Program-made: the position numbers and the translations under genes
From: a virus
IMG/VR virus record: IMGVR_UViG_3300036790_000198
Location: 3,426 to 67,425 of that record
DNA length: 64,000 nt
Direction: 5' to 3' (one strand)
In this document: piece after piece, positions 27,154 through 48,131 of the stretch
How positions within the stretch are numbered: the first letter of the stretch is position 1
Layout of the letters: each line of letters starts with the position of its first letter
Notes under the pieces: model-generated
What the model was told of the DNA's origin: nothing
Databases searched by the model: none
Seen by the model: the letters and a program-made list of their open reading frames with translations, nothing else

Positions 27154-27206
27154 TTCACATGACCGTGTTGACGTTATGGCTTGTTCTGTGGTAAGGAATT
27201 CGACCC

Positions 27207-27458
27207 ATGCTGATCTACGCCATATTCCTCTGTATGCAGGGCGCGCAGTCATGCGAGCCGCAACCGGCATTCACCGACATTGACGGCTCTCAAACGCCGG
27301 CTATTTATGAGTCACTCGCGGACTGTCAAACTGCGGTGGCGCAGCGTGTCCCTGGCGGCGCCGTCAAGCCTGACAATGGGCGCTTCTACTGGGATACTTC
27401 AAAGAGCATCTGGTATGTCTGCCTTGCGCGCCACGCCGACACCTGGCAGCAGCCCTAG
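27207..27458 (+). CDS. Small Cys-containing envelope-type protein, antisense moron
   Basis: 83 aa, hydrophobic N-terminus, four Cys; opposite strand within the tail module. Confidence 0.6.
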   Translation: MLIYAIFLCMQGAQSCEPQPAFTDIDGSQTPAIYESLADCQTAVAQRVPGGAVKPDNGRFYWDTSKSIWYVCLARHADTWQQP

Positions 27459-29522: not shown

Positions 29523-31496
29523 CTACTGCACGGTCCAGTTCGTCACGCTCTGGACCGTGGAGTGGTTGTAGTCCGAGGCGCCAAAGCCTACGTAAGCGGC
29601 GCTCCCGTTGACCACCGTCGGAATGTTCACCGTCCAGCTAAAATTCTGAGTGGTCGAAGTGACGGTATCTTTCAGAGTCAGCGACAGCGTGGTCGTTGAA
29701 TTGTTGTAGGAGAGCGTCCCCTGCATCAAATGCCCGCTCGTGAGTGAAATGCCCGAGAGGCTCGTATCAGAGCCGTGCGGGACGGCGCCCCCCGTATACA
29801 TCCCTACGGTGCCGTTCCAGGCGTCGAACTTGACGCACAGGCTGGAGGGGATACCGGAATACCCAGCACAGGGAGCACTCTGCGAATAGTTCGGGAACCC
29901 GACGGCGTAAGGTCCTCCACCCCCGCTCATGCAGACGCCGGTCGAGGTATCGTCAGAGGCAGGGAGCGGATTGTTGATAATGAAGGTGAGCGCGTTTTGG
30001 CTCGGCGAGCCGGTCATCGAGAACTCGAACACAGTCGAGAGCGCGGTGATATCGACTGGCGCCAGATAGAAGGCGGTGCCGGTCTGCGACCCGCCGTCAC
30101 TTGAGCTCGGGGTGAGTTCGATATAACCCGAACCGTTCACGGTGGCGACGGCATTCGTTGCAATGCGCCCGGCGGAGCTGGCGAAGCCGCTCGGGTAATT
30201 GATCGTGGGGGTGCCGGATGACTGGATCTGGTAATCCGCCTGGGCTTGGAAACTATCAGTGAAGTTCGCCTGCACCGCTATCGCATTGACAATGGTGCTC
30301 GCGCTGACCGTAAACGAGCCGGTATAGAGCGTTGAGGCTTCGGTTGCCGGGCTGCCGTTGATCGTGTAATAGATCGATGCACCCGATGGGCCTGAGATCG
30401 TGATCATCTGGCCGCTCGAATATTGGCCTGCGGCGGGACTGATCGTCGGGGTAGCGAGGCGCGAGTTATACCCTGAATACTGCGCCCAGGACTTGCAGTA
30501 GACGTTGGCGGGGTTGATGACGCCGCCCGTCACCCCGAGGCGAGCAGTGCTCGCGCCAACAATCGTCGGAATGTCTACCGGCCATTCAAAGTACGCCTTA
30601 TTGCCCGTCCCCACGTCCGTGAAGACGACCGAGAGGATAGCGCCGTCGTAGACGATGTGGGCCGAGAATGTGTTGCCACTCTGCCCATAAAGCCCTTGCG
30701 GGGCCATATCCAAGGTCGCGGAAACGCCGTTATCGATGTAAGGAAGACAGTTGGCGTAAAGGCCTGCCATGGTGGGCGACACGCCGAAATTGCCCGCTCC
30801 TGTGCCCACGGGAGGCGTGGTATTGAACGCCACGCACACACTCGTCAGCGGCCCATAGCCCGCAGGATTCGTAGGGGGGGCATACTGGAAGTACCCCAAG
30901 CCATTGGAGTCGCCCTGCGCGACCGAACCCTTGACATCGTTCTGCATCACGAAGCAGAAGCCATAGCCGACGTTGGTCAGTGCATCGATCGTCGAGCCGG
31001 AGGCTATCGACAGGGAAGAACTGAGCGTGTAGGTGCCTGGTCCTCCGGTGCCGGTGCCAAAGGCCTTGACGTAGACTTCCTGTCCGCCAAAGTTCTGTAG
31101 CGTCGTGCCCACATAGATCGTCCCCGAGATCATGCTCGCGACCGTCATCGTCGTCCCTGAACTGCCTCCTACGAAAGAACACGTCCCATAGGGGCTGTCT
31201 CCAACTGAGAACGAGATGTCGGTTGTGAAGGAGGTGACGTCGTAGGTAGCGTGCGTGTACGCCTGGCCGGCATCGTGGATGCCGTCATTCGTCGTGACGA
31301 CGTAGAGATTATTGCCGCTATACCCGGTGCCAGCGTTGGTGGTGTCGATCGTTGCGGGCCGGGATGAGAAGTTGGCGTAATTGAAGATCGGTGTCGCGCC
31401 ACCCCCGCCACCGCTTCCTACGGCCGTGACAACTGCGCGACTAGCCGATACTCCTGAGAATGAGATCGCGCCAGCGCCGGTCAGTGGTGTGCCCAC
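29523..31496 (-). CDS. Carbohydrate-binding protein: two legume-lectin-like domains around a chitobiase/FN3-associated domain
   Basis: FTTDISF..., GF.F, VDIPTIVG..TA..GVTG and VNIPTVV..AYVGF; ATPTISPAAG.Y...IYYT.NGS...YT. Confidence 0.75.
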   Translation of the reverse strand: MGTPLTGAGAISFSGVSASRAVVTAVGSGGGGGATPIFNYANFSSRPATIDTTNAGTGYSGNNLYVVTTNDGIHDAGQAYTHATYDVTSFTTDISFSVGDSPYGTCSFVGGSSGTTMTVASMISGTIYVGTTLQNFGGQEVYVKAFGTGTGGPGTYTLSSSLSIASGSTIDALTNVGYGFCFVMQNDVKGSVAQGDSNGLGYFQYAPPTNPAGYGPLTSVCVAFNTTPPVGTGAGNFGVSPTMAGLYANCLPYIDNGVSATLDMAPQGLYGQSGNTFSAHIVYDGAILSVVFTDVGTGNKAYFEWPVDIPTIVGASTARLGVTGGVINPANVYCKSWAQYSGYNSRLATPTISPAAGQYSSGQMITISGPSGASIYYTINGSPATEASTLYTGSFTVSASTIVNAIAVQANFTDSFQAQADYQIQSSGTPTINYPSGFASSAGRIATNAVATVNGSGYIELTPSSSDGGSQTGTAFYLAPVDITALSTVFEFSMTGSPSQNALTFIINNPLPASDDTSTGVCMSGGGGPYAVGFPNYSQSAPCAGYSGIPSSLCVKFDAWNGTVGMYTGGAVPHGSDTSLSGISLTSGHLMQGTLSYNNSTTTLSLTLKDTVTSTTQNFSWTVNIPTVVNGSAAYVGFGASDYNHSTVQSVTNWTVQ

Positions 31497-31804: not shown

Positions 31805-32527
31805 TCAACCTTTCTGGATCACGGCGGCCGAGGCGGCGATACTCGGCGTAATGCCCGAGGAAATGACTAGCGGTGTTGCCTTGTAGAGTATACCGGAACC
31901 GACTGCCGACGTGTTGACGGGACTGCCGTTTGAGGTCGTCGTCGAGAGCGTAATCGTGGATCCTGAGACGGTGCCGACATAGTAAAGCGTGCCACCGGTG
32001 ATGCCTGTGGGCAAGCTCTCAGTCCCTGGAACCGGATAGACCACAACCTGATCATTCACGGTCGCCGAGTAACCATAGACCGTCAACACGCCGGGGCTTG
32101 CCAGCGTGCAGGCGAACGGCACAACGGGGCCTGCGGTCGGGCCAAGAGCGCCGTGCGCAAGCAAAGTACCCGTTCCGGTCGATGAGAGGCCCAGGCCCCA
32201 GAACGCGGCAGTGCCGCCGGTCGCCCCGCAGGCGGCAAAGGAGATCTGCGCGGCATTGACGACGTTTGAGAACGTCGTGCCAGATCCTAGCGTCGCGGTA
32301 AAGCCGGACGTCGAGCGCGCTGAAGCCACACGCGCATAGTTGGTGTACGCGATCTCGCTTGTCGTCTGCGAGCCGGCATCGCCGGGGTCCGCTGTATGAA
32401 GCGACCAATAAAGACTCGTCACCGGACTACCGGCGTTTTGCGCGACCGCGCTCCAGGCGCCGGAGAAAGTCGCGGTGTAAAGCGCCTGAAGCTCCGCGAA
32501 CGATTGTGCGAAAGTTTGGATAGCCAT
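31805..32527 (-). CDS. Virion fibre-associated structural protein
   Basis: LY.SLHTADPG...E..Y..YAR, N...ISF, GTGTLL..G, I.SGITP motifs. Confidence 0.7.
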   Translation of the reverse strand: MAIQTFAQSFAELQALYTATFSGAWSAVAQNAGSPVTSLYWSLHTADPGDAGSQTTSEIAYTNYARVASARSTSGFTATLGSGTTFSNVVNAAQISFAACGATGGTAAFWGLGLSSTGTGTLLAHGALGPTAGPVVPFACTLASPGVLTVYGYSATVNDQVVVYPVPGTESLPTGITGGTLYYVGTVSGSTITLSTTTSNGSPVNTSAVGSGILYKATPLVISSGITPSIAASAAVIQKG

Positions 32528-33259: not shown

Positions 33260-33697
33260 CTATGGGAACAGGGCGCTGTTGGTCGGGTACGCGCCCCTCA
33301 ACGTCACCGTAATGTCAGGCTTGTCCCCGTTGAAGTCCATGCCGTCGGGATTGACGATCGCGACCTGGTAGAGGTCGAACGCCGGGAAGTTGCTCGAATC
33401 CGAGCGAACGGTGACGGCGCCGAGCAGCGTGTTGGTTTCCCACTGACTTTTATAAAGCGCCGCGATGTTCATGGCTTTATTGATGTCAACGGCCAGCGTC
33501 GCCATCACGTAGAACTGGGGCGAGGTCACAACTCCCAAGGCGACAGGCAGATGGCGCGTCATCTCGCCATCGAAGGTCAAGCGGGCCATCGCCTTGCCCA
33601 TGACGGAGGGCGTCAGGTTGAGCGAGAGGAATGAGGGAATGGAGACGCTCGTCAGGGCGAGGTTGATCGTGCCCAATTGCGGGCTAGGATTGGCCAC
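33260..33697 (-). CDS. Tail tube protein
   Basis: 145 aa, follows sheath. Confidence 0.7.
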   Translation of the reverse strand: MANPSPQLGTINLALTSVSIPSFLSLNLTPSVMGKAMARLTFDGEMTRHLPVALGVVTSPQFYVMATLAVDINKAMNIAALYKSQWETNTLLGAVTVRSDSSNFPAFDLYQVAIVNPDGMDFNGDKPDITVTLRGAYPTNSALFP

Positions 33698-33707
33698 CGT
33701 TTACTCC

Positions 33708-35093
33708 TCAGCCTGCCACTGTGTTGTTACTGACCAAGACCGCGATCAGGATGTGCCTGAAGAACTGCGGCGCCCAGAACGCGATCGTTATGCCGCCGTA
33801 GGTGTTCGCAGCGTAGAGACTCGGGTTCTGCGTGATGTACGTGATGTACGGCACGGCGTTGATGACGTTTTGCCCGACATAGTCGCCATCGTTGAGATTG
33901 TTTACGAAAGTCTGCTGGTCCAAGCTCGTGCGGGTGACCGAGCCTTGCGAAAGCGCATATGCAACTGAGTTCACGAGCAACTGGTATTCGGAGTCCTGAA
34001 GGGTGTTGATGCCGGCTTGGCTGTACCAGAGGGGCGCCAAAGAATTGTTCGAGCCCTGGATGACGACGTTCGCCGCAGTCTGCTGCGCGTTGATGGCAAG
34101 ATTATCGATCGCATACCACCAGGATGCGTCGTTGCCGTCCATCAGGGTGCCGGCGGATACCATCGACTGCGTCGGGAAGCCGCCCTCGGCGGCAGTCGCG
34201 ACGTAGTTGACGTTGGCGCTCGTCAGTGTCGCAAGGAGCGCTGAGTTGCCGAGCACCGGATACGGCGTCGCATCATTCAGATATTTGTACGCGAATGGGG
34301 TCAACTGATTGGTCGAGGACGGTGCGTAGGAGAGGAACGCCTGGAAAGCCTCTGCCGCATCGAACTCGGTGAGATAGACGCCCGGCGCCTCGACCCATGT
34401 CTGAATCGACTTGATGCCGGCGTAGGCGGAATACGTGCCGGTCGTTGTCGTGGTCCAGAAATAGGTCTTGGAGGTATCGGTATTGAACTGATTGGCGAGC
34501 GCGATGAAATTCGCCGAGCCGTCCCAGGTCTTCGGGATAAGGTAGACGTAGAACACCTGGCTCGTCGCGTTGACCGCGATGAATGTGCCAAGAGCAGTGG
34601 GACCGGTGGAAGCATCCGACGGCCCGAGCTCGAGCACGTACACGCCCTTGCTCGTCCCTTGCGCAAAGAAGTCCGTCACCGCCAACTGCAGCAGTACCTG
34701 ACTCGGAGGCGTATACGTGCCGGCCGCGGTCTCGCTCCCGGGATTGCCTGCGAGCGCGTAAGTGAACGTCGCCGGACCGGTAACAGCCGCGATGACCGTG
34801 CCATTGAAGCCTACGGGTGAGGCATTGGCGATCGTGGTCTCGAAGGTGTCGCCGGTTGTGAGCCCGGGGATATTGGCCGCAGCGGTCGCCGTGACCGTCC
34901 CGGCGCTCCAGGTTAGGCTCGAGAGTGTGAGGGGCGGGGCAATGAGTGGGGTGAGGTCGGACTCTTGCGTGAGGAGCGAATACGCCCCCGAGGCAAGGGA
35001 GGTCCCGCCTTGGGAGATTATGGCACCAGTACCCTGAAGGGTATTGGGCGTCGCTCCGAGTAAGGTCGAGACGGTGAGACTGACAATTGACAC
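33708..35093 (-). CDS. Tail sheath protein (DUF3383-like)
   Basis: FFAQG...VYVLELG, WY..D, PL.Y.Q.GIN.L. Confidence 0.8.
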   Translation of the reverse strand: MSIVSLTVSTLLGATPNTLQGTGAIISQGGTSLASGAYSLLTQESDLTPLIAPPLTLSSLTWSAGTVTATAAANIPGLTTGDTFETTIANASPVGFNGTVIAAVTGPATFTYALAGNPGSETAAGTYTPPSQVLLQLAVTDFFAQGTSKGVYVLELGPSDASTGPTALGTFIAVNATSQVFYVYLIPKTWDGSANFIALANQFNTDTSKTYFWTTTTTGTYSAYAGIKSIQTWVEAPGVYLTEFDAAEAFQAFLSYAPSSTNQLTPFAYKYLNDATPYPVLGNSALLATLTSANVNYVATAAEGGFPTQSMVSAGTLMDGNDASWWYAIDNLAINAQQTAANVVIQGSNNSLAPLWYSQAGINTLQDSEYQLLVNSVAYALSQGSVTRTSLDQQTFVNNLNDGDYVGQNVINAVPYITYITQNPSLYAANTYGGITIAFWAPQFFRHILIAVLVSNNTVAG

Positions 35094-35111: not shown

Positions 35112-36053
35112 TTACGCGGGCAATTTGTTGAGGAGAATGGTAGGCACGGCTTTGAGAATCAGTTTCTGCGCCACCGTGTTGACGCGTGATTGGGTGTAGG
35201 AGACTCTCACATCGATCATTTTCTGCATGGCGATGGCTTGCAGTTCCTGCTGCGGGCGCTTGCCGTCCACGACTGTCGTGGCTTTCATGATGCCAAAGTT
35301 GTTAGTATCCAGGGTGTACTGAAACATGGCGTTCAAAAAGTCGATGGCCTCGTTGCTCTGCAGGCCATAGAGCACAATCCGCACGTTGTCTGCTACCAAC
35401 TGCGTGCTGGAGGAGTTCGCATCTAGGCCCGGCATCACGGTCAGTGGCTCTGGCCCGCTGATGATGACTGCCCCATAAGGAGGGGTCAGATTAGGTTCCA
35501 CCAGATCCGCCGGATAAAGAGTCAAGTTCGGCTTGAAGCCGTAGAGAGGCTTGTACCGAGCGAAATCGAGCCAAAGCGGCATGCTGTTGGAGACCACCGC
35601 TCGGGTGGGATCGATGAGCCCTGGCGTATCGAGTAAGAGCGAAGCCAGCGCCGGGTAAATCGACTTGCACTCGTAGTGCCAGATACCGGCCTGCTCATAG
35701 CGACCCATCTGACGCGAGAAGGCGAAACGGAACTCCTCGACCGTGGCCACGAAGATCGTGTTGGGCGGCGCGCTCTCGAAATCGGTGATCCGACTGTCGG
35801 CCGTAAACCAGATATGCGCGAGGCCCACCGTCTCGTCCTCATTCTGTTCCCAGTCCTGGGAGAAGTGCAGCGACCCGCCGATCGGCTGCGTCTTCACCGT
35901 CGGCTGCCAATAGACGTACTTGTCATACGGCAACACGACGCGCGAGTAGCATTGAAAGACGAGTTCGCGGTGGCCGCTCAATTGATCTTTGGCGGCGCGC
36001 AGCAGCCCTGCCTCTTGGCCCGAGGCATCGGCGCCTTCGTCGAGAAGGCCCAT
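35112..36053 (-). CDS. Head closure / tail completion protein
   Basis: Position upstream of sheath; TGATG overlap. Confidence 0.55.
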   Translation of the reverse strand: MGLLDEGADASGQEAGLLRAAKDQLSGHRELVFQCYSRVVLPYDKYVYWQPTVKTQPIGGSLHFSQDWEQNEDETVGLAHIWFTADSRITDFESAPPNTIFVATVEEFRFAFSRQMGRYEQAGIWHYECKSIYPALASLLLDTPGLIDPTRAVVSNSMPLWLDFARYKPLYGFKPNLTLYPADLVEPNLTPPYGAVIISGPEPLTVMPGLDANSSSTQLVADNVRIVLYGLQSNEAIDFLNAMFQYTLDTNNFGIMKATTVVDGKRPQQELQAIAMQKMIDVRVSYTQSRVNTVAQKLILKAVPTILLNKLPA

Positions 36054-36556
36054 CAGGACACCCACGCCGCGAACGAAGACATATACGTGCCGGTGTCACG
36101 GAACGACACCCGCCGCGGATTGCTTCGCCGGTACGGGTGAGCAAGGCGGTGACTGACGCCCCGCATCGCCGCCCCGGTCGGCGTCCCCGGTATCCCGGCC
36201 CGCTCCGCCGCGCCCGATGAGATCCAACGCTTGAAGTCCGACTGAATCGCCGACATGCCGCGGGCGAATGGGCTGACTCGCCGGCCCGTGATCAACGCCT
36301 CGAGCGCGCCCTCGACCGAGTCCGCCAGCGCGTTCTCGATGACCTTGCCGCGCACGCGCGCGTAGGTCTCCATGATCCCGTAGCGGTGCTCGAGCCACTG
36401 CGCCACATCCCCGGTGGTCACAGCGCCCACCTTGGCGGTCGCGGTGCGGTAGGGAACGACCATGACGCCCAAATTCAATGTCGGGCCCTTGCCCGAACTG
36501 ACCGCAGGGGCTGCCCCACCGCCGCCGTAGGCACCGGTGGTGTCGCGAAAGAGCAT
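36053..36556 (-). CDS. Neck / tail completion protein
   Basis: VA.WLE..YG, R.SF.DTG.Y..S. Confidence 0.6.
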   Translation of the reverse strand: MLFRDTTGAYGGGGAAPAVSSGKGPTLNLGVMVVPYRTATAKVGAVTTGDVAQWLEHRYGIMETYARVRGKVIENALADSVEGALEALITGRRVSPFARGMSAIQSDFKRWISSGAAERAGIPGTPTGAAMRGVSHRLAHPYRRSNPRRVSFRDTGTYMSSFAAWVS

Positions 36557-36591
36557 GGGGCGGCTTGGCTAGGCTTACGCCGTGGAGTGGC

Positions 36592-36840
36592 TCAGACGAG
36601 CTTCAGGGCCGCGGCGGCCCCGGAGCCTGCGACCTGGATGCCGCCGAACTGCGCCGCGACGAACGCCTGGAACTGGTTCGCCACCTCGCGCAGCGCCTCC
36701 GGGCTCATGGCCTCGTACTCAACGGTGCCGAGGTAATCGCCAGCGGTGGTGGTGAAAAGCACCTTGCCGCCCGCGGGCGGGCGCGGAATAAAGGACATCT
36801 TCACTTGCGCGGCTGTGCCGTTGATGCCGTTTTGGGTCAC
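36592..36840 (-). CDS. Hypothetical protein
   Basis: 82 aa; GTGA overlap. Confidence 0.5.
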   Translation of the reverse strand: MTQNGINGTAAQVKMSFIPRPPAGGKVLFTTTAGDYLGTVEYEAMSPEALREVANQFQAFVAAQFGGIQVAGSGAAAALKLV

Positions 36841-37148
36841 GCGAACGACACCGCTAGTGTCTGGCCGGTACCCGGCGCCACGACGATGCCGGTGCCGCAG
36901 GGCCAGTTAAAAATGTACGTGCCGACGGTATTCGGGATGGTGCCGAACTGATTGGCGGCAGCGGCGGCACCGGTGGTAGCGATATCGTTCACCGTGCCCA
37001 CCGCGCTGCCGGCGACGACGACGGAGACGGCGACGCAGATGCCTGGGGTGGCCTTGAGCGCCGTAGCGGCCGTCACATTGAGAGCGGCCCGGTTACCGCC
37101 AGGCAAGCCGGCAGAGACGGTGACCGGGCCGACGAGGGTGGCGGCCAT
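36837..37148 (-). CDS. Small beta-rich virion decoration protein
   Basis: LNVTA...K..PG...G...D...GI.V.PG. Confidence 0.6.
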   Translation of the reverse strand: MAATLVGPVTVSAGLPGGNRAALNVTAATALKATPGICVAVSVVVAGSAVGTVNDIATTGAAAAANQFGTIPNTVGTYIFNWPCGTGIVVAPGTGQTLAVSFA

Positions 37149-37151
37149 GGC

Positions 37152-37583
37152 TTACGAGTAGGTCCCGGTACCGACGTTCTGCAGCGTCACGGTTGTCACC
37201 GTGGCGATAGTCACCACGAACTCGCGCCAGGTGTTTTGCGCAATCGTCGCGGTGCCCGTGACCGTGACGCCCGTTCCGCCCGCGACCGTCCAGGCGAAGG
37301 CGCCCGAAGATTCGTTGATGATGCATGCCTTATAGGTGAACCCGACATAGCGCTGCGCCTGGGGAATGGCGGCGATGATGTTCACGGCCGTGTCGGTAGT
37401 GGCGATACGGGCCGCGGTCAGAACGCCGGTCAATGCCAGGTCGACCTCGACCGCGCCGCCAGTCAGATTCGCAGCGGTAACGACGTGGGCAACGGCAGAG
37501 GAATCGGCATTGAATGCGATATTGGGCTGCGCGGCCTCTCGCAAACCGTTCGGATTGTTCCAAGGCAAAACATTCTGTGGCAT
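37152..37583 (-). CDS. Putative head decoration/fibre protein
   Basis: T.TA..I.AA.P, GGTGVT..G; start at MPQNVLP. Confidence 0.6.
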   Translation of the reverse strand: MPQNVLPWNNPNGLREAAQPNIAFNADSSAVAHVVTAANLTGGAVEVDLALTGVLTAARIATTDTAVNIIAAIPQAQRYVGFTYKACIINESSGAFAWTVAGGTGVTVTGTATIAQNTWREFVVTIATVTTVTLQNVGTGTYS

Positions 37584-37603
37584 GAGTGAGAATCTCCGAA
37601 AGC

Positions 37604-38272
37604 TTAAGAGACGCCGTAGAGGTTGGGGCCGTAGCTCATCGCAATATCGAGATAGGCCCTGCCAAATGGAGTTTTGAGGCTCTGCAGATCGCCGAGCGTG
37701 AAATTCTTCATCGCTTCCAAGTTCAAATATGCGCCCGAGGTCCCCTGATCCGATGCCGCCTGAATGACGCCAACCGTGGGATCGAGTAGCTTGTACTTCG
37801 TCCGTATGTCCCTGAAGAACGTCTGGCCTGGCAGGTCCGTTGCATAGTTGAGCAGGCGGTCGGCCGCGAGGTTGTATACCGCGAACGTGTAGAGCTGCGG
37901 CGCCACCAGGAGTGTCGCGTTCACGGTTTCGAGCGCGATATCCAAACTCGCGGGCACGATCGCCGGCACGACGAGATAGGAATCCCCCGGCGCCGCAGTG
38001 AGTCCTGCCGGATTGCCCGCAGGCGTTATGACAAAATCGATCTCGGTTGCGGTATTCGAGATGACGCTGCCGCTCCAGCACTGCGTCACATCAAAGATGA
38101 CGCAGTTGGCCCACTGATTTGGCGTCCAATCTGCCGAGATGTCCGTCAGGCTCCACGCCGTGCCGGCACTGACTGTGCCGGCGGCGCTAGGGAAGACTCC
38201 GGGCGCATCCGACGGCGGGATGCCTACCGAGAGCAGGAAGGCTCGGTAGGCATTGACGTTTGGACAGGACAC
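37604..38272 (-). CDS. Head-tail adaptor (DUF4054-like)
   Basis: AVYNLAAD.L, T.FGR.YL. Confidence 0.65.
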   Translation of the reverse strand: MSCPNVNAYRAFLLSVGIPPSDAPGVFPSAAGTVSAGTAWSLTDISADWTPNQWANCVIFDVTQCWSGSVISNTATEIDFVITPAGNPAGLTAAPGDSYLVVPAIVPASLDIALETVNATLLVAPQLYTFAVYNLAADRLLNYATDLPGQTFFRDIRTKYKLLDPTVGVIQAASDQGTSGAYLNLEAMKNFTLGDLQSLKTPFGRAYLDIAMSYGPNLYGVS

Positions 38273-38274
38273 TG

Positions 38275-38823
38275 TCAGAGACGTGCGCTACGACGCTCGC
38301 CCCTATTGCGCGGTTGGATTCCGGCCTGCGTGGCTTCCGAGCCCTTACCGCCCACATCCGCATCCTTTGACCTGTAGGCCGCCATTTCGAGCTCTACGCG
38401 CTCAGGGGCCGGGGAGCCGGATTCCTGCGCCCGCTCGCTCTGCTTGACGAGAGAGGCCGCCGCAGTGGCGTTCAGCATCGTGTCGCTACGCTCTTCGGCT
38501 GCATGGCGATTTTGCTCGACCGCATTTTCGATCCTATCCACCTTGATCGGCTTGTCGTCCCAGATCGTACCGACGAAACCGCGGGCGAGATCGCCATTGC
38601 GGCGAACGCCGTAATTAGCCCCTTGATGATCAAAAATGTGCTTGACATCTAACTCCGAGAAGTCCCGGCCCCCGCCCAGAGTGATCTGGCCGCCCGCCGG
38701 AATCCTCTCGACGTAAAGACGCTCGCTCCACATCATCCGGCCGGTCTTCGGATTGACCTCGGTCGGCATGCGGTAGTTGAACTCCATGTTCTGCACGGTC
38801 GTGTTGGCAAGGTAAATTTTCAT
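38275..38823 (-). CDS. Hypothetical virion protein downstream of capsid
   Basis: AGGGG RBS; MKIYLANTT.Q. Confidence 0.6.
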   Translation of the reverse strand: MKIYLANTTVQNMEFNYRMPTEVNPKTGRMMWSERLYVERIPAGGQITLGGGRDFSELDVKHIFDHQGANYGVRRNGDLARGFVGTIWDDKPIKVDRIENAVEQNRHAAEERSDTMLNATAAASLVKQSERAQESGSPAPERVELEMAAYRSKDADVGGKGSEATQAGIQPRNRGERRSARL

Positions 38824-38863: not shown

Positions 38864-39883
38864 CTAGTAGATAATGCTCAGCAGCGAAGTGGTCTCCGGG
38901 CGGACCGGCCATCCGCACGTCGCGCGAATCTCATACAGCGTGTCGACGGCTCCGAGCGCCAAGGGCACGGTGATCTCAAGCGGCGCCGCCATATCGGCGT
39001 ACTGGAACGAACAGCCAGCCAGATTCGGCTGCAGCTTCGCGAACTCGTTGGTATCCCACTCAGGACCATTGGGCTCTTCGACCTCGGGCATCTGCAGGAT
39101 CACCATGTCGGACCCGCCAGCTCCCTGACCGATCAGGGTGTCGTCATAGCAGAACTCGATGACATCGCCCTGTGTCTCCTTGGCGACCTGTTTCACCATT
39201 TCGGCGGTCGTCGCGCTGCCAGAGCCCAGACGCTGATAGCTCGTCAACTGCACGACGTTGACCAGTTCAAACTGGCCAATGATGCGCTGGGGCCCAAGGA
39301 ACACGAAGCGATGGGGCTTGCCAAGCTGGTACGTGCGAGCCTTGAGATTCAGAAGCTGCTGCAGGAGCCATAGCGCCATCTGGCCCGAATCGTAGGTCAG
39401 GACCGTCGTATTTCCGAATGTGTCTGGGGGGAGCGAAACGGCAGTGCCTCCGCCGTTGAGAAATCCCTCGCCATTGGCGGCATTGACGCCGTAGAGCTGC
39501 ATGTTTCGCAGGACCTGGAAGATCGTCTGGCGATTGGCGAGCCGATATCCCTGAGCGATGTTGACGCCCCAGCGGCTCATGTTCGCCGCATCGTGATGAT
39601 CCCACTCGGCGTGAGCCCTGATGCGGTACGTCGGGGTGCTGATGTACTTCGGAATGAGCGTGGCGCCCGGCAAGAGATTGCCTGCCGTCTGGCCCACCTG
39701 GGCCTGACCGTTCATCCCAAGCGTACGCATGTACACGTAGAGATCCTCGGGATCGAGCATGATGCGTGGTTTGCCATCCGCAAGTAGGCGCTGCGCCTGC
39801 GATGCCTGCGAGATCTGCATGAGCACGCCCGGCTCGATGCGAGACGGGTGAACCTGTGCCCAGGAAGTGCCTAAAGTAGCCAT
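38864..39883 (-). CDS. Major capsid protein (DUF2184/encapsulin-like HK97 fold)
   Basis: 339 aa; LYG....GEG.LN, R.T.GW.VRP; synteny. Confidence 0.8.
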   Translation of the reverse strand: MATLGTSWAQVHPSRIEPGVLMQISQASQAQRLLADGKPRIMLDPEDLYVYMRTLGMNGQAQVGQTAGNLLPGATLIPKYISTPTYRIRAHAEWDHHDAANMSRWGVNIAQGYRLANRQTIFQVLRNMQLYGVNAANGEGFLNGGGTAVSLPPDTFGNTTVLTYDSGQMALWLLQQLLNLKARTYQLGKPHRFVFLGPQRIIGQFELVNVVQLTSYQRLGSGSATTAEMVKQVAKETQGDVIEFCYDDTLIGQGAGGSDMVILQMPEVEEPNGPEWDTNEFAKLQPNLAGCSFQYADMAAPLEITVPLALGAVDTLYEIRATCGWPVRPETTSLLSIIY

Positions 39884-40550: not shown

Positions 40551-41363
40551 TTAGCGACCAACGTCTCGGTTGATCCTGCCGAACTTCGTGGCGCCTCCCA
40601 TGAAAGCCCCCCACGTAACGGCCGGATCACCGATAAACTTGCGCACAGTGTGGCCCGAGTCGTTGCGCGTGACCAGCTCGCGAAGCGGCGCGCCGATGGT
40701 GACCTGACTCGATGATGCCTCTACGGCATCAGTTACGATCGCGTTCTCAACTACCGAGAATGCAGCCGAGTCGTTGACCAGAATCCCGAGGTTGGAATCC
40801 TTGTAGACCTTGCTGTGGGACTTCAGCTTTGCGAGCAGGCGCACGCGGTAGTCGTTGAAAGTCTCGCCCTGAAGCGCGTGCGGGGCCTGGCCGTAGTTCC
40901 ATGCCTGATACGCCGCATCGCAGCGCATCTGGACTTCGGCGAACCTCGCCTTGTCATCGTCCGAGAGAATCGCCGGCATGCGGCGCTCCATCTCGGCGAG
41001 TTTCTTGGCGAGCTCGGAGTTGTTACCGGCGCGCAGAGCGGCGTCGGCCTTTTCTTTCTCATCGCCCTCCTTCTCTTCGGCGTCTTTTCTGGCCTTGTCG
41101 GCCTTCTCCTTTTCCTCCTTCTCTTTCGCCTCGGCATCGGCGCACATCTTGTCGGCCTTCTCCTTCTCCTCCTTCTCTTTGGCCTCGGCGTCAGTGCGGG
41201 CCTTGTCGGACCGATCCTTCTCCGCCGCAGCCGCATCCGCACGCGCCTTCCACTCGGCGGCATCGGCGCGGTCCTTCTTGTGCTCCGCATCGATCGAATC
41301 GATCTTCGTGTGCAGCGCGTCGAGATGGTTCAGGACTTTGTCCAGCTTGTCTTCATCAGCCAT
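40551..41363 (-). CDS. Scaffolding protein
   Basis: Charged coiled coil (EKEEKEKADK repeats); P..GE...YR.RL. Confidence 0.75.
   Translation of the reverse strand: MADEDKLDKVLNHLDALHTKIDSIDAEHKKDRADAAEWKARADAAAAEKDRSDKARTDAEAKEKEEKEKADKMCADAEAKEKEEKEKADKARKDAEEKEGDEKEKADAALRAGNNSELAKKLAEMERRMPAILSDDDKARFAEVQMRCDAAYQAWNYGQAPHALQGETFNDYRVRLLAKLKSHSKVYKDSNLGILVNDSAAFSVVENAIVTDAVEASSSQVTIGAPLRELVTRNDSGHTVRKFIGDPAVTWGAFMGGATKFGRINRDVGR
41094..41193 (-). repeat. 54-nt-period tandem duplication in scaffold gene
   Basis: DAEAKEKEEKEKADK encoded twice. Confidence 0.7.
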
Positions 41364-41451
41364 GGTCAGTTGACTCCGAAAAATGCGGCAACGCCGCTGT
41401 AAGGGCGCACGCCGCATTGGTGTGCACGCCGGGGAAAGGAGAGAAACTTGA

Positions 41452-42483
41452 TTAGCAGCGCGAAGATATTTCGCGCGCGTAGACTTTTTCGATGATCTGA
41501 TCGAGAGAGTTGGTCCGTGAATCCAGCACGACATCGACTCCGCTCGCAGGGCCTGATTTGTCCCAGACCCCGAGGGTGCAAACTGCGATGTGATCCAACA
41601 GGCGGATGTCACCCTCTAGCAGTAACTTCGAGCCGTCCTCAAGCTTTTGAGAAATGCTCGTCTTGAGCTTCACGCCGGGAGAAGTCGACCATTGTTCGGT
41701 GGAGAGCGCATCGACCGCTTCTCCGTCATACACTTTGGCAATGCCCCACACCTCGCGCTCTTCTGGCTTGATGTATGGAATCATGACCGAGCCGATAACG
41801 CGCCTATTAAACTCCTTGGAGTTCATCATGCGTTTCGTCGGGTGCTCCCAGATGACCGTGAGACCCTGGCATCGCTCAAGAAACTCATCGTTCAGATATA
41901 GCGACGGATCGCGCCAGACATACTCGTCAATTCCTGCGCGATATGCAGCGCCTGTACCGGTAATGCGCAGCGCCACGAGCAGCAAGTTTTCATACCGCTG
42001 CGGGCTTACTAGGTCGCCAGCGACCATCGCCTTGGCGATTCCGAGCTCGTCCATGTCGAATCTCTGCAGCGCCACCGCGGCTCCCGCATGCAGCGGCAGC
42101 GTCGCGAGCGCGGTCTCAGGTCGCGCCCAGGTGAAGATGTCGTGCTCTTCGTTGAGTCGCGGGACGAACTGCTCGGACTCGCCGATGAACGTCGTGAAGT
42201 CGACGCCGTCTTTGATGCGGCGCGTCCAGGGCGAGAGCTTGCCGGCGTAGCGCTGCGCCGTTTCCTCGAACGTCTCGCGGCGCGCGCAGCCCTCTGGAGA
42301 TTCGCTTTCTTCAACGCCGCCACCCGGGAACGCCCATTCTCCCGCGTGATCGCGACCAGTACGGCGCATGAGCAGGACTCGGCCGTCATCCGCCATGAGC
42401 ATGACGCCGGCGGCGCGCAAGGGCTCGCCATCGGCCGGAGGAGGCGAGGGAGACAGGTCTCCGGGTTGTCCGATGTCGGCCAT
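41452..42483 (-). CDS. Nudix hydrolase fused to prohead protease (DUF2213-like)
   Basis: GGVEESESPEGCARRETFEET Nudix box; RITGTG, HP, STSP, LDHIAV..GVWD. Confidence 0.85.
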   Translation of the reverse strand: MADIGQPGDLSPSPPPADGEPLRAAGVMLMADDGRVLLMRRTGRDHAGEWAFPGGGVEESESPEGCARRETFEETAQRYAGKLSPWTRRIKDGVDFTTFIGESEQFVPRLNEEHDIFTWARPETALATLPLHAGAAVALQRFDMDELGIAKAMVAGDLVSPQRYENLLLVALRITGTGAAYRAGIDEYVWRDPSLYLNDEFLERCQGLTVIWEHPTKRMMNSKEFNRRVIGSVMIPYIKPEEREVWGIAKVYDGEAVDALSTEQWSTSPGVKLKTSISQKLEDGSKLLLEGDIRLLDHIAVCTLGVWDKSGPASGVDVVLDSRTNSLDQIIEKVYAREISSRC

Positions 42484-43527: not shown

Positions 43528-45093
43528 CTAGGCCCGCACTGACGCCACGCGCGGGCGCAGTGCATCCACCGCCGTACGCAGCTTCGTGAAGTCCGTGGCA
43601 GAATCGAAGCGACCGAACTTCTTGGCTTCCGGACCGACGTCCTCGGTTCCGCCTTCGGAATTCTGGCTGGCTTCCTGCGATTTATCCTGCTGCTTCTGCT
43701 GTTTCTCGTAGAAGCCGATCAACTCCTCGATATCGAGATCGAGCGCATAAGCGAATAGGCGTTTGTTCTCGCCCGCATTGTCGATCGCCCACTGGATGAG
43801 TCGGGCCTTGTTCTGCGGATCAATCTCCGGCAGCAGCGTTTGCAGCAATGCGACGGTTGCCTCGAGCCGAACCGAATCGAATTTAACGTTCTCCGACTCC
43901 GGTTCAATCAGGAACGACGGCCAGGTCGAGGCGAACGAACGGCACCACTCCATGAACGCAGCCTCGTGCGGCATCGACTTGTATTTCGCGGGATACAATC
44001 CTTGAATGCGTTTATAAAACGCCGGCGCCATCCACGCTCGGTAACGGACGATGTTATCGAACCAATCGTAATCTGGCTTTAAGTCCACGCGCACGCCATC
44101 GATGTACTTGGCGATCTGCTTGGCGTCCTCGGTGCCCTCGGCCATGCCGCCGATCATCGTCTCGTTTTCGAGTAGCTTGGCGGGCATATCGGCAGCCGTC
44201 GACGCGTTCTTCAGGATATTGGTGCGCGCAAAGGTGCCGGCGCCATCGACGTTCTGCATGTTGAGCGTCGCGACGTCCTCATCGACGCCAATGGTCATTA
44301 CCTGGCCCACATGAGCGGCCTTCAACAGGAACCGCTTCATGGCCGCGGCAGCCTGCATGATCTTATTGACGACGCTGCCAGGGGACTGCAGCTTCTGAAC
44401 GAGCAGCCCGTTCTTCGTCGCGATCATGTCATCCGCGATCATCGTCTTGATGAACGACTTCAGCGGGAAGAGCGCGCGCTGGTAGACGCTGCGGCCAGTG
44501 AAGCCAAAGCCAGAGTCCACATATGCGATGTAAATCGGCTCCTCGTTCATCGCGATACGATAGCGGGAGCGATGGTAGGTCTCACCTGCGGCGACGACGC
44601 GCGTCACCCGGTTGAAATCCGGTGTATTCGGCGCCTGATTCATGATGACAGAGCCCGAAATGTTCAACGGATCAAACACGTTGAAGTAGATCGGCAGATC
44701 CCAGAGCTTCGTCATGTCGAGCGGTTTCTCGCTCGGTACGCCCTCGCAACCGATAACGAGAGCCGAGACTCCGTAGACCCGAGCCAGGCGGCGAAGGTTA
44801 AGAATATTCGCGTCGGCGCGCAGTTCCGTCCAGACCTGCTGAAACTCGTCGACAATCTCTTTCTCGGCGCCCTGCACCGTGACGGCCCGAGGTTGCGACT
44901 GCGCCATCTTGATCGGCGCCTCGGCCATTTTTGCTCCCAATGGATGAAAAAGCAAAATCTCCTTACATGTTTCATAAGATGGCTGTGCTCCAGGCACAAT
45001 ATCGTCAGCCATCAAAATCCGCATCAACGCGGATTTCTTCCACTCATCATCAGGCACCGGGCCGTTGAGTTGAGTGATCGCCGCGAACGCCAT
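43528..45093 (-). CDS. Portal protein (DUF1073-like)
   Basis: R.YG..A, H.SR, G.SV, AADMP..L, GTED...; synteny. Confidence 0.85.
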   Translation of the reverse strand: MAFAAITQLNGPVPDDEWKKSALMRILMADDIVPGAQPSYETCKEILLFHPLGAKMAEAPIKMAQSQPRAVTVQGAEKEIVDEFQQVWTELRADANILNLRRLARVYGVSALVIGCEGVPSEKPLDMTKLWDLPIYFNVFDPLNISGSVIMNQAPNTPDFNRVTRVVAAGETYHRSRYRIAMNEEPIYIAYVDSGFGFTGRSVYQRALFPLKSFIKTMIADDMIATKNGLLVQKLQSPGSVVNKIMQAAAAMKRFLLKAAHVGQVMTIGVDEDVATLNMQNVDGAGTFARTNILKNASTAADMPAKLLENETMIGGMAEGTEDAKQIAKYIDGVRVDLKPDYDWFDNIVRYRAWMAPAFYKRIQGLYPAKYKSMPHEAAFMEWCRSFASTWPSFLIEPESENVKFDSVRLEATVALLQTLLPEIDPQNKARLIQWAIDNAGENKRLFAYALDLDIEELIGFYEKQQKQQDKSQEASQNSEGGTEDVGPEAKKFGRFDSATDFTKLRTAVDALRPRVASVRA

Positions 45094-45473
45094 TATGGCA
45101 CCGCGCGTATGATCTTGAACGTCGTGCGCGCGTAGCTCACGTTGTTATCCTGACCCGTCACCTGAAAGAGCGCCTGGTGCGTTTCGGACTCGCGTGTCAG
45201 ATTGATCATGGCATTTTGTGCTGAGGTGACAGTGATCAGGTTGACGATTACGGGCGCGATCGAAGTCCAGCCGAGAATCTGCTCAAGCTCCCTACTGGCA
45301 CACACCAAATCCAGGCGATAGCTGATCGCAAGCGGCTGGTACTCGTTGCCGTACACGTCGAACCAGGACGCTTGAAGCTGGCAGGCGGAACCGGCGAGAT
45401 ATGCCGAGTCGGCGGCCTGAATGCTGGTCTGCGACAAAGCCAGGATCTGCGCTGATCCGAACGCGAGCGCCAT
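45093..45473 (-). CDS. Small protein, standalone copy of the domain at the C-terminus of 27455-29521
   Basis: NAMINLTRESETHQALFQ versus NAMVNVTRHRETHEALFQ. Confidence 0.7.
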   Translation of the reverse strand: MALAFGSAQILALSQTSIQAADSAYLAGSACQLQASWFDVYGNEYQPLAISYRLDLVCASRELEQILGWTSIAPVIVNLITVTSAQNAMINLTRESETHQALFQVTGQDNNVSYARTTFKIIRAVP

Positions 45474-46070
45474 TTACTTCGCGCCCTTGGCCTTAGCACG
45501 CGGCGAAGTATCCAACGCGAGAATAACCCCCACACTCCACGCGCTGAAAAGCTCGCAGCATTCAGGATCCTCTCCGGTAATGCTGACGGAGGTGATCTGG
45601 CTCATGAGGTGATTCCGTGTCACGTCCTGGAACGTGGATTCTTTCTCGTAAGCCGGGCGACTCATAATCACAAGGCTGCGGGCAACATATGCAGTGCTCG
45701 CAATGGCGCGTTCCTGAAGCGTGAGAGCCGCGAATGGCTCAGGCACTTCCTCGACCGAGGTGTGGCCTGACTCGTATAGCGCCGCGGCCAGCGATGAGCC
45801 TATGCCATCGGGCTCGACGAAAATGGTGTCCGTTGGATTGAGTGCGCCACATTCGACGGTGAGGCGCCTAACCTGCTGACTGAGGTCTCGTGCCCAAGCG
45901 GTCACCCCATCAAAACAGGCGAGCGACCAATCGAGCACGACGAGCGGCCAAGCGTTGATCTGCAGTTCATCGTAGCCGAAGATCACCGCCCCAATCGCAT
46001 TACGCAATGGCGTCGAGCCGATGACGGCGAACACCGTTGAGAGATGCTTCGGAAGCTCCGGTCGGTTCAA
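45474..46070 (-). CDS. Probable inactive terminase-nuclease-like (RNase H fold) domain
   Basis: VFAVIG, LVVLDW, IFVEPDGIG..L, ERA, NHLMSQI; acidic catalytic residues appear lost. Confidence 0.55.
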   Translation of the reverse strand: MNRPELPKHLSTVFAVIGSTPLRNAIGAVIFGYDELQINAWPLVVLDWSLACFDGVTAWARDLSQQVRRLTVECGALNPTDTIFVEPDGIGSSLAAALYESGHTSVEEVPEPFAALTLQERAIASTAYVARSLVIMSRPAYEKESTFQDVTRNHLMSQITSVSITGEDPECCELFSAWSVGVILALDTSPRAKAKGAK

Positions 46071-47413
46071 AGGAGTTCCTTGCGAAAGAATCCGCCGACG
46101 GGCTCGGTCAGCATGAGTTCTGTTATGGCCCAGACTGCGGCGTCTAGGCGGTCGGGCGAGTACCCCATGACGGCCGTGTCAAAATCCACCGTCATCTCGC
46201 AGAGCTGGTCCTCGAGCTGAGGGTGATTACCGACATGATGGACGCGGCCCTGCTCATAAAGCGCCGCGACCGGTTCCGCACGCCGCGCCTTACCCCGGCT
46301 CGCATGCACGGCCTTGTACGGGACTGATGGGTCAACGGTGCGCAGGGTTGCCTCGACCATATCCCCGCCGTTATTCACCTCGGCGACGATTCGGTCGGCC
46401 TTGTACTTGCGGTAGAGACCGATGGCCTTTCTCGCCCACTCAAGCGGTTGGTAGCGACCGGAGAGATCCTCCAGCACGAACGCTTCCTGAGTCCCTGACA
46501 TGCCAGCGACTACGATGCCGGTCTCATCGGATTTTTCCTCGCTCGAAACGGCGGGATCAATCGCAATCACGATGCGCTGTAATGCCGGGACACCAAAGAC
46601 GCGCAGTTCTTCAATTCTCGAACGTCGCCAGAGCGCGCCGGGAACATCCTCGAGCAGCTCGGCCAGCAACTCTTGGCGCCCGAGTCTCGTGCCTTCGTAC
46701 TTGCGCACAATGGACGAGAGAAACGACGGCGCCAAGTTGGAGCGATTCTCGTACGTACTGCCGCGCGTGACGACAACGCCGTCGCCTTCGCGTGCAAGCA
46801 AATCCTTCAGAAGCTTTACCGGCTTCGGGGTTGTGGCTACAACGCAGCGCGGGTTATTCCCCTGGCGCAGCCCGAACTGAAGCATGTCGTACGACTCAGG
46901 ATAGGACCACGCGGCGAGCTCATCGCAGACTGCGGCATCATGCTGCGGGCCTCTTAATCGCTCGGGCTCATCCGCTGAGTACGTCGTGGCCATGGCGCCA
47001 TTGGGCCATGTGAGCCTGCGCTTTGACGGTTCATAGAGCGGTCGATTCCAAGGCGGGCTCACGGCTAAAATGCCGGCAGGTCCCTCCACGAGCACCTCGC
47101 GGGCATCCGCAGCAGTAGGCGCAACGAGTGCGATGCGGCCGGCGCGGGCCGCTTGGACCTCTCCGCGGACCCACTCCGACAAAGTCATGGTCTTGCCGAA
47201 CCCGCGGCCCGCCAAAATGAGCCAGACATTCCAATCGCCAAGTGGCGCTAACTGATTCGGACGCGCCCACCAGCCCGTCCAGTCCCACTGAAAATTACGT
47301 GCTTCCTGTGCTGTCAGCCGGCTCAGAACTTGCTCTTGCTGCTCCTGCGGCAGCGCCGCCAGCAATTCGACTGGAGACCGATTGGAGGAGGGCAAGATTT
47401 CGTTCACGGGCAT
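46067..47413 (-). CDS. terL: Terminase large subunit
   Basis: AGRGFGKT Walker A, CDELAAW Walker B, IAIDPA, DETG, SPDRLDA nuclease motifs. Confidence 0.95.
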   Translation of the reverse strand: MPVNEILPSSNRSPVELLAALPQEQQEQVLSRLTAQEARNFQWDWTGWWARPNQLAPLGDWNVWLILAGRGFGKTMTLSEWVRGEVQAARAGRIALVAPTAADAREVLVEGPAGILAVSPPWNRPLYEPSKRRLTWPNGAMATTYSADEPERLRGPQHDAAVCDELAAWSYPESYDMLQFGLRQGNNPRCVVATTPKPVKLLKDLLAREGDGVVVTRGSTYENRSNLAPSFLSSIVRKYEGTRLGRQELLAELLEDVPGALWRRSRIEELRVFGVPALQRIVIAIDPAVSSEEKSDETGIVVAGMSGTQEAFVLEDLSGRYQPLEWARKAIGLYRKYKADRIVAEVNNGGDMVEATLRTVDPSVPYKAVHASRGKARRAEPVAALYEQGRVHHVGNHPQLEDQLCEMTVDFDTAVMGYSPDRLDAAVWAITELMLTEPVGGFFRKELL

Positions 47414-47864
47414 TGTCGATCTCGATCGGGCCGCCGTCCGGCCCGCTGATCTCTTGCGAGACCTTCTCGCCGTACCTCTTGGCGTTCATCCGCGCGAGAC
47501 GCCACTTCATGGTGTCTACCCGAAGCCTGGAACGCTGAATGTGCTCTCCGTTGACGCGATAGCCGGCATTCTCTGGGTCGTTGACCGACATCCAGTCGTT
47601 GATGCCGTTGTCGGCCACTTCCTGGATGTCATCAAAGCCAAGCTCGGCTCTCGTTTCCTGTGCTATCGCGTACTGTGCGGAAAATTCGGGATGCTGCGCG
47701 CGCCACAATGAAATAGTAGACGCGCAAGGCATTGATTCGTCGCGGCATATTGACCGTAGCGACTCTCCCTCAACCATCCGCTCGCAGAATCGAGTCGCAA
47801 GCTCGGTGGTATAAAGGCTCGGCCTGCCGACTGAACGGCTTGCCGGCCGCTCAGTGTCGGTCAT
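47295..47864 (-). CDS. terS: Terminase small subunit
   Basis: GRPSLYT.E...GESLRSIC...P, RSRLRVDTMKW...K.YG.K..QEISGPDGGPI. Confidence 0.88.
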   Translation of the reverse strand: MTDTERPASRSVGRPSLYTTELATRFCERMVEGESLRSICRDESMPCASTISLWRAQHPEFSAQYAIAQETRAELGFDDIQEVADNGINDWMSVNDPENAGYRVNGEHIQRSRLRVDTMKWRLARMNAKRYGEKVSQEISGPDGGPIEIDNARERNLALLQSVSSRIAGGAAAGAARASSEPADSTGST

Positions 47865-48131
47865 GGGAATCTCCGGATTATGTGCTCGGTCTGTTGAAAC
47901 GAAAATCAATGCCCCTCGCCGGCAGGCCCACTGGCTTTTCTAGGATGGAGCCGCAAGCCCGCGTATGCCTCGGCCGCACAACCGTAGGCGCCGTGTCAGG
48001 GGCGCTCGCTCGTCACGGGAAGCGCAGGCAATGCATCGTATGGGGCGGACCCTGATCCAGGACCACTGGTAGGCGTAAGCCTTTACGGCCCAACCGCCTC
48101 GGCAAGCGATATTTATACGTCCACGAAGCGC

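Follow-up and report, generated by a model that had tools for sequence, protein, structure and literature searches.

We propose that a small immunoglobulin (Ig)-like domain, which is encoded twice in an uncultivated phage genome, is the virion-anchoring collar module of a collar-rope-whisker neck-fibre apparatus of the GP4/Bas63 type; we put the probability of this reading at about 0.5. The DNA studied is a stretch of 64,000 nt (positions 3,426-67,425 of the IMG/VR record IMGVR_UViG_3300036790_000198; hereafter the window) from a 67.4-kb virus record with an estimated completeness of 83%, in which the minus strand carries all relevant genes. One copy of the domain constitutes a standalone protein of 126 amino acids (aa) encoded next to the portal gene, and the other terminates a repeat-rich, fibre-like protein of 688 aa. 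By analogy with the known systems, the fusion would combine rope and collar, and the standalone form would be a rope-less collar subunit. The argument draws on direct observations of six kinds: the homology of the copies, the Ig-like fold, two architectures, the repeats, terminase-portal synteny and co-occurrence with the whisker family PF23140.

The preliminary description of this DNA had noticed a domain common to the standalone protein and the C-terminus of the fibre-like protein, and the resemblance is indeed significant. Both open reading frames (ORFs; 45093-45473 and 27455-29521, minus strand) are present as described, about 17.3 kb apart. In a BLASTP comparison, residues 5-123 of the 126-aa protein align with residues 568-683 of the 688-aa protein with 41/119 identities (34%), 56% positives, 3 gaps and 73.2 bits (E 2e-20). 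The fused copy comprises residues 564-688 (27458-27832, minus), i.e. the extreme C-terminus. When the 67.4-kb record was searched with a profile made from 10 standalone homologues and the C-terminal copy, it was hit at exactly two places, which are the two copies (E 3.8e-62 and 2.7e-55). Homologues of the 126-aa protein are 41-78% identical and 122-132 aa long. Neither the 126-aa nor the 688-aa protein matched any Pfam or PHROG family above threshold, and a tblastn search with the 126-aa protein against 50,697 phage records returned no match. The standalone protein and the C-terminal segment of the fibre-like protein (residues 564-688) represent diverged paralogues within a single domain family of tailed phages. 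Likewise correct is the reported TAATG coupling of the standalone gene to the portal gene: its TAA overlaps the following ATG by one base (CCA TAA TGG), and the downstream 521-aa product (43528-45093, minus) is a portal protein according to PF06381 (E 7.8e-14) and phrog_146 (E 7.4e-45).

The AlphaFold2 (AF2) model of the 126-aa protein is a 7-strand beta-sandwich (predicted local distance difference test, pLDDT, 76.7) with an Ig-like fold of the macroglobulin (MG)/FN3 type, and the structural likeness to the MG/FN3 superfold spans the whole domain. What it has in common with MG and FN3 domains is the fold only, at 6-12% identity and without a Pfam match. Foldseek found 0 matches in the PDB at E<=0.001, and BFVD yielded a single match, the unnamed 118-aa viral protein A0A516LH03 (E 9.5e-6). 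From the ESM Atlas came only viral 'hypothetical protein' clusters and MG2-like structures. No phage collar chain is among the 50 matches listed in the VIA structure lists, which leaves room for a similarity to collars. The best-conserved feature is the loop between strands 5 and 6, roughly [IV]T[SA]xQNxM..TRxxExHQ. In 138 sequences, Glu97 is invariant (138/138), Asn87 and Pro47 are each kept in 137/138, and Cys31 in 99/138. The strong conservation of the loop with Asn87 and Glu97 suggests one conserved partner.

A profile search of 1.84 billion representatives retrieved 625 proteins at E<=0.001 (50% clustering), and every source name seen for a member was 'hypothetical protein'. Among 49 members compared with PHROGs, three matched phrog_912 weakly (best E 4.7e-4) and one matched phrog_21056; the same 49 gave three single-member Pfam matches, all with E >0.001. 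On these grounds the family is real, sizeable and uncurated. It is new to the databases searched, together with its fused, standalone and tandem variants. The preliminary description had called the arrangement possibly undescribed; this goes too far, as the collar-rope-whisker principle was published in 2023-2025, even if the domain family itself is uncurated.

Two architectures recur among the 160 sequences of the family that we classified, of which 159 match locally. The standalone form (<200 aa) accounts for 107/159, although some of the entries of 150-200 aa may represent truncated sequences or ORFs called too long, as happened with L019 and L020. The fusion form accounts for 51/159, in proteins of 235-1087 aa in which the domain ends <=40 residues from the C-terminus. 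The domain is thus at the extreme C-terminus in 51 of the 52 long proteins, and the remaining one has 50 residues after it. P0133 (5311 aa, 18 partial matches) turned out to be a Big-type adhesin repeat protein and was dropped as a family member. The N-terminal parts of the fusions have no mutual similarity that we could detect and no Pfam family in 10/10 fusions scanned. In the window fusion, the N-terminal region (approximately residues 1-204; 28910-29521, minus) is probably globular, with low AF2 confidence, and in BLASTP against the other 50 fusions >=300 aa residues 1-560 match only themselves. An anchor would be expected to look like this, with the C-terminus conserved and the N-terminus variable. 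A tree of 138 domains mixes standalone with fused forms: it has 22 changes of form, at least 6 of which are forced by well-supported branches. Eight standalone forms make up a well-supported clade at 70-80% identity, and the two copies of the window sit in different clades.

For the gene neighbourhoods we used a single IUPAC motif pattern, which retrieved 19 stretches (5 viral, 12 metagenomic and 2 from metagenome-assembled genomes, MAGs). Four metagenomic stretches without the domain (L021, L022, L024, L025) were dropped, so that 15 domain-bearing loci remained, or 16 with the window. A domain gene lies directly upstream of the portal gene in 9/16 loci, namely the window and 8/15 others with a phrog_146-type portal. 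The pre-portal gene is standalone in L003, L016, L019, L020 and L031, and fused in L015, L017 and L032. In L008 and L028 the domain gene is directly upstream of the gene for the large terminase (TerL), in L030 it precedes a Holliday-junction resolvase gene and in L023 a gene for a small structural-like protein. A downstream neighbour was assigned in these 12 loci and not in L026, L027 and L029 (3/15 loci); in L029 a small terminase gene is directly upstream.

In whole-record profile searches, G004, which is called 100% complete, has a fusion and no standalone form, and G002 (100% complete) and G001 (81%) have a standalone form and no fusion. In G001 the standalone gene comes directly after the TerL gene, without a fibre gene before it. 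In G004, G005 and L032 the fused form fills the exact pre-portal slot. The preliminary description had supposed that the two forms hetero-oligomerise; since one complete genome has the fusion only and another the standalone only, hetero-oligomerisation cannot be obligatory and would be optional. Both forms seem to be retained in one close relative: a single contig of 69,664 bases is the reported source of P0003 as well as P0162, the latter with 55% identity to the window fusion across 239 aa. Other arrangements were also seen. On a Bryobacteraceae MAG contig (L032, 3554-6484), the portal gene is immediately preceded by two fusion genes in a row, both with the domain at the end of the product, and on a metagenome contig (L027, 1-995) a fusion is followed at once by a standalone copy. 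In G002 (L016, 2599-9085) three large genes (976, 737 and 459 aa) occupy the TerL-portal gap before the standalone gene; a PASTA domain (E 1.1e-6) closes the 737-aa protein, and three long 'KAKTDNLP...' repeats, as are typical of a fibre, occur in that of 459 aa. Going by the titles of the MAGs, relatives probably infect soil Proteobacteria or Acidobacteria. Among 401 genomes of the phylum of G007, the domain was detected in G007 only. A related-locus search returned one locus with alignment A1 and none with alignment A7.

The fusions carry periodic sequence ahead of the domain. In each of the 51 fusions we compared the best self-similarity lag in up to 260 aa upstream of the domain with 200 shuffles. 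The best lag is 19-23 aa, with 0/200 shuffles reaching it, in 28/51 fusions, and when the doubled period (39-45) is added this becomes 36/51; a few fusions have periods of 29-34 aa instead. In 12 control segments from six other window proteins, >=6/200 shuffles always reached the observed value. The repeat motifs differ from protein to protein. In the 688-aa protein, the central region (approximately residues 205-563; 27833-28909, minus) is rich in Ala, Gly, Ser and Thr, has 20-aa and 40/42-aa periodic repeats and is a candidate rope or shaft. Lags of 20, 40 and 60 are found over residues 201-565, and a 42-aa super-repeat lies at approximately residues 300-390; the best lag of the segment ahead of the domain is 42, reached by 0/200 shuffles. 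An array of 20-22-aa (or doubled) units directly before the domain, as seen in 36/51 fusions, is a candidate for a whisker-binding rope. In the podophage A1002, whose published rope of ~226-268 residues binds 11 whisker dimers, simple arithmetic gives ~20-24 aa per dimer (PMC13730344), which matches the 20-22-aa period. In the full-length AF2 model of the 688-aa protein, everything but the domain is below 50 pLDDT, with 22-41 in the central region, and the model therefore does not decide between a rope and a solenoid. A complex prediction with two Gp80-like copies and residues 209-308 of the 688-aa protein (score 0.00, mark 0.32) speaks neither for nor against binding.

The fusion travels with a gene of the GP4 gp80 whisker type. 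Two genes upstream of the 688-aa gene, the window encodes a 240-aa Gp80-like 'whisker / Fiber-1' protein (31805-32527, minus) that matches PF23140 (E 2.5e-10; 41.2 bits vs a cut-off of 27; E 1.5e-12 in a six-frame family search) and has 217 relatives, most of them with PF23140. This family occurs in 3/3 fusion-bearing records (G000, G004, G005) and in 0/2 standalone-only records (G001, G002). The whisker homologue of G004 matches GP4 gp80 in PDB 8JOU (chain a) with E 4.5e-11. In the TerL-portal block of G004 and G005, a Gp80-like protein is followed by one to three further proteins and then by the fusion. The block of the window (Gp80-like protein of 240 aa, lectin/CHB_HEX_C protein of 657 aa, fusion of 688 aa) has the same form, moved into the tail module. 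On one MAG contig the fusion and a Gp80-like gene are four locus tags apart. The sample for this link between whisker and fusion is small, and every case points in the same direction. Between the two lies the gene for the 657-aa protein (29523-31496, minus), which has legume-lectin (Lectin_legB, E 1.7e-16), chitobiase/hexosaminidase C-terminal (CHB_HEX_C_1, E 1.2e-15) and Fn3-associated (Fn3_assoc, E 1.8e-8) domains and no PHROG match. With these carbohydrate-binding-type domains, it is a likely glycan-binding component of the cassette for this appendage.

A docking module for a virion appendage at the portal vertex, as the preliminary description had it, is still the best reading, with roughly even odds; its label 'accessory fibre' for the 688-aa protein is an interpretation, not an observation. 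The docking role gains from the C-terminal position of the domain behind variable N-termini, from its retained place in the terminase-portal module, whether fused or standalone, and from its company with the whisker gene. Moreover, in GP4 and Bas63 it is a connector ring of Ig-like collars to which whiskers of this kind are fastened (PMC12609058, PMC11445570). From this analogy we infer presence in the virion, location at the neck, ring formation, rope function and a possible mixing of the paralogues. Sited next to the portal at the head-tail connector, the domain would be a self-sufficient anchor. As part of a fusion, it would grip a long appendage by its proximal end, with the 20-22-aa repeat array as the rope on which Gp80-like whisker dimers would be strung and the variable N-terminal domain at the distal end. 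A standalone protein would act as a rope-less collar subunit, occupying connector sites alone, as in G001 and G002, or alongside a rope-bearing paralogue, as in the window phage.

Several points weigh against a collar. The Ig-like fold is among the commonest beta-sandwiches and hence says nothing on location. A sequence relationship to known collars is not detectable: hhalign gives a probability of 0.2% for the domain against ORF54 of Felix O1, which we took as the collar gene by gene position only, and 0.8% against JC1_55, a GP4 collar homologue. The domain profile has no credible match among 177,635 distinct PDB sequences, the sole match at E<=10 being a lysozyme (E 0.07). At best, therefore, the domain would work like a collar, and the present evidence does not place it in the collar families of GP4 or Felix O1. 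The context sample is small (16 loci), and the single motif pattern favours relatives of the window's copy. Some family members adjoin genes for the small terminase, TerL or the Holliday-junction resolvase, not the portal, and the fused gene of the window itself lies in the tail module, between tube-associated genes and a tape-measure-like gene, rather than at the portal. The standalone-only phages lack PF23140, so the role of the standalone form cannot depend on whiskers. Finally, the position of the two window copies in different clades makes their co-assembly in one ring uncertain.

We regard a more speculative extension as doubtful. The window phage might build a mixed collar ring of rope-less 126-aa and rope-bearing 688-aa subunits, the ratio of which would set the number of chain-like neck fibres, while relatives would use a blank-only (G001, G002) or a fibre-bearing-only (G004, G005) socket. 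Through the loop with Asn87 and Glu97, the subunits might then make a conserved contact with the connector, or even be locked to it covalently. Such a ring would amount to a natural, modular plug-in system for swapping neck appendages.

Other explanations of the same data have to be weighed. The domain might bind the shell instead of the neck, like the capsid-binding domains of T4 Hoc or T5 pb10, with the standalone form as a decoration protein and the fusions as head fibres. An Ig-like fold is typical of phage decoration proteins, and a small self-sufficient form is the commonest architecture here (107/159). The chain-like fibre of GP4 is also described as docking onto the capsid (PMC13730344). 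We nevertheless consider a capsid anchor unlikely: the gene is located in the terminase-portal block and coupled to the portal gene, not beside the major capsid gene (38864-39883), and all solved Gp80-type whiskers covered by the accounts consulted are anchored at the neck or tail (PMC12609058, PMC13730344).

It is also improbable that the domain ends the protein without anchoring it. The repeats would then be a beta-solenoid or trimeric shaft, the C-terminal domain a distal glycan-binding adhesion or fibre-terminating domain, and the standalone protein an unrelated use of the fold. In ordinary tail fibres the C-terminus is distal, and the AF2 model of residues 348-551, although of low confidence, looks similar to SufD-type beta-helices. 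A distal receptor-binding end is usually variable, however; here it is the C-terminal domain that is conserved and the N-termini that are dissimilar. Furthermore, a standalone protein of 105-130 aa cannot reach the host surface unless it binds the virion by itself, and the conserved loop (N87 in 137/138, E97 in 138/138) suggests one conserved partner. In A1002 an Ig-like domain does end a rope instead of anchoring it, which would fit a non-anchoring role (PMC13730344).

There could also be no functional link at all, if the standalone gene were what survives, at the TerL-portal junction, of the 3' end of an earlier fusion gene and the fused gene had come in independently as a cassette. The fused form in the exact pre-portal slot of G004, G005 and L032, the position of the window's copies in different clades and the neighbouring ORF of 198 aa, itself a remnant-like terminase piece, would fit this scenario. 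We hold it to be quite unlikely, given that standalone forms are numerous and conserved (107/159, with the 8-member clade at 70-80% identity) and that a close relative appears to keep both forms (P0003, P0162). The intact motif of the standalone protein and the tight coupling of its gene to the portal gene argue for selection.

Least probable, to our mind, is an assembly or chaperone domain that aids folding or oligomerisation of the repeats, may be cleaved and, as the standalone form, acts in trans; variable shafts followed by a conserved C-terminal domain also characterise fibres with intramolecular chaperones, and in G002 the standalone gene comes after that of the 459-aa fibre-like protein with long repeats, but the Pfam scan of the 688-aa protein and 10 other fusions found no C-terminal Peptidase_S74 (PF13884-type) or other chaperone family, the standalone gene of G001 directly follows the TerL gene with no fibre gene ahead, and we know of no fibre intramolecular chaperone with an all-beta Ig fold.

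The other genes of this region, all on the minus strand, are arranged as follows. The genes for the small terminase (47295-47909) and TerL (46067-47413; Terminase_6N/6C) are followed by the 198-aa ORF (45474-46070), which is directly upstream of the standalone copy and in frame with it across a single TAA. This ORF is homologous to the C-terminal ~195 residues of phrog_38-type TerLs, whereas the window's own complete TerL is of the different Terminase_6 type. In BLASTP it is 26% identical to residues 324-519 of the 525-aa TerL of G001 (E 1.5e-21), and four more TerLs were matched. It looks like a 3' remnant left by a terminase replacement. After the portal gene come a gene for a MuF-like head protein and the capsid genes. 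At 40551-42483 (minus), phrog_6216 (545 positions) is spread over two ORFs that overlap by ~160 nt, one (41452-42483) covering profile positions 4-289 and the other (40551-41612) positions 303-544; the N-terminal part also matches NUDIX-hydrolase PHROG families. In the Pantoea phage PdC23 this place is taken by a single 553-aa 'nudix hydrolase' gene and in G004 again by two ORFs, and the pair in the window may be a split gene or a frameshift. Further on are genes for connector proteins (35112-38823), a gene without family match at the expected position of the myophage sheath (33708-35093, minus), a tube-like gene (33260-33697, minus), the block with whisker and fusion genes and a 580-aa tape-measure-like gene (25528-27270, minus; phrog_7694), the product of which has a C-terminal SLT lytic transglycosylase domain (E 8.4e-10); baseplate and fibre genes come after it. 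The nearest cultured relatives by major capsid protein are Certevirus-like myophages (44-49% identity). In PdC23 the TerL gene is directly followed by the portal gene, and the tape measure gene comes after the tube-associated genes. Two elements have thus been added to that backbone in the window: the small genes before the portal gene and the 240/657/688-aa block.

If the domain is indeed a collar module, a large unannotated family would mark the attachment point of accessory neck fibres in mostly uncultured myophages. The collar-rope-whisker design, known from a handful of cryo-electron microscopy structures, would be extended to much longer ropes (~17 repeat units), and an extra distal domain as well as fused, split and blank collar variants would be added to it. 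The collar would also offer a natural site for the exchange or display of appendages on phage particles. For annotation, a C-terminal copy of the domain that comes after 20-22-aa repeats, in company with PF23140, would suggest a neck-fibre cassette.

Among other known Ig-like or beta-domain collars, the N-terminal domain of DEV gp53 (15-mer), XM1 gp40 and A-1(L) gp5, a pentadecamer with bead-chain neck fibres, are small beta domains arranged in a fibre-carrying ring around the connector (PMC11445570, PMC12609058, PMC10966104). A single polypeptide can serve as both fibre and anchor in such cases; DEV and XM1 have the anchoring domain at the N-terminus, unlike the window fusion. In the Pseudomonas podophage A1002, the nozzle-rope protein gp39 binds its gp80-like dimers by beta-augmentation and carries an Ig-like domain; it differs in that nozzle domains anchor the rope, the distal part of which terminates in the Ig-like domain (PMC13730344).

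The Ralstonia podophage GP4 (gp77 adapter, rope protein and Fiber-1 gp80; PDB 8JOU) resembles the window in its small standalone Ig-like collar protein, which in GP4 rings the adaptor, and in its whisker, of which the window cassette encodes a true gp80 homologue. Its separate rope protein interlocks with a 15-mer ring of the 93-aa Ig-like adapter and carries five gp80 dimers (PMC11445570, PMC12609058, PMC13730344). Rope and collar are thus separate proteins, the phage is a podophage and the collar has 93 aa vs ~120 aa of the window domain. In the GP4-like Burkholderia phage JC1, a gp80 homologue is followed by a 291-aa protein and a 92-aa collar homologue (8JOU chain D, E 9.3e-19); this order of whisker, rope candidate and collar is that of the window cassette. 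The 291-aa protein (JC1_54; L018, 9413-10288; annotated hypothetical) has a 22-aa periodicity that 0/200 shuffles reach, which makes it a candidate rope, and no PDB sequence match at E<=0.01. The small JC1_44 gene between the TerL and portal genes of JC1 is unrelated to the domain.

Felixounavirus Bas63 has twelve Ig-like collar proteins that ring the connector at the interface of adaptor and head-completion proteins, each with an N-terminal rope on which two gp80-like whisker dimers are strung (PMC12609058). The window repeat region of ~355 aa is much larger in scale than this rope for two dimers, and fusions of the window type add a variable N-terminal domain of ~200 aa. The whisker and collar genes of Bas63 come after the portal gene, those of the window type before it, and Bas63, as described, has no rope-less paralogue. 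In Felix O1, ORF54 (166 aa) and ORF55 (110 aa) likewise come directly after the portal gene, and ORF55 has a weak PF23140 match. With these differences, the collar-whisker complex of Bas63 (and Sf14; PDB 9MT4), in which a myophage unites an N-terminal rope and an Ig-like collar domain in one protein, has the same topology as the window fusions (PMC12609058).

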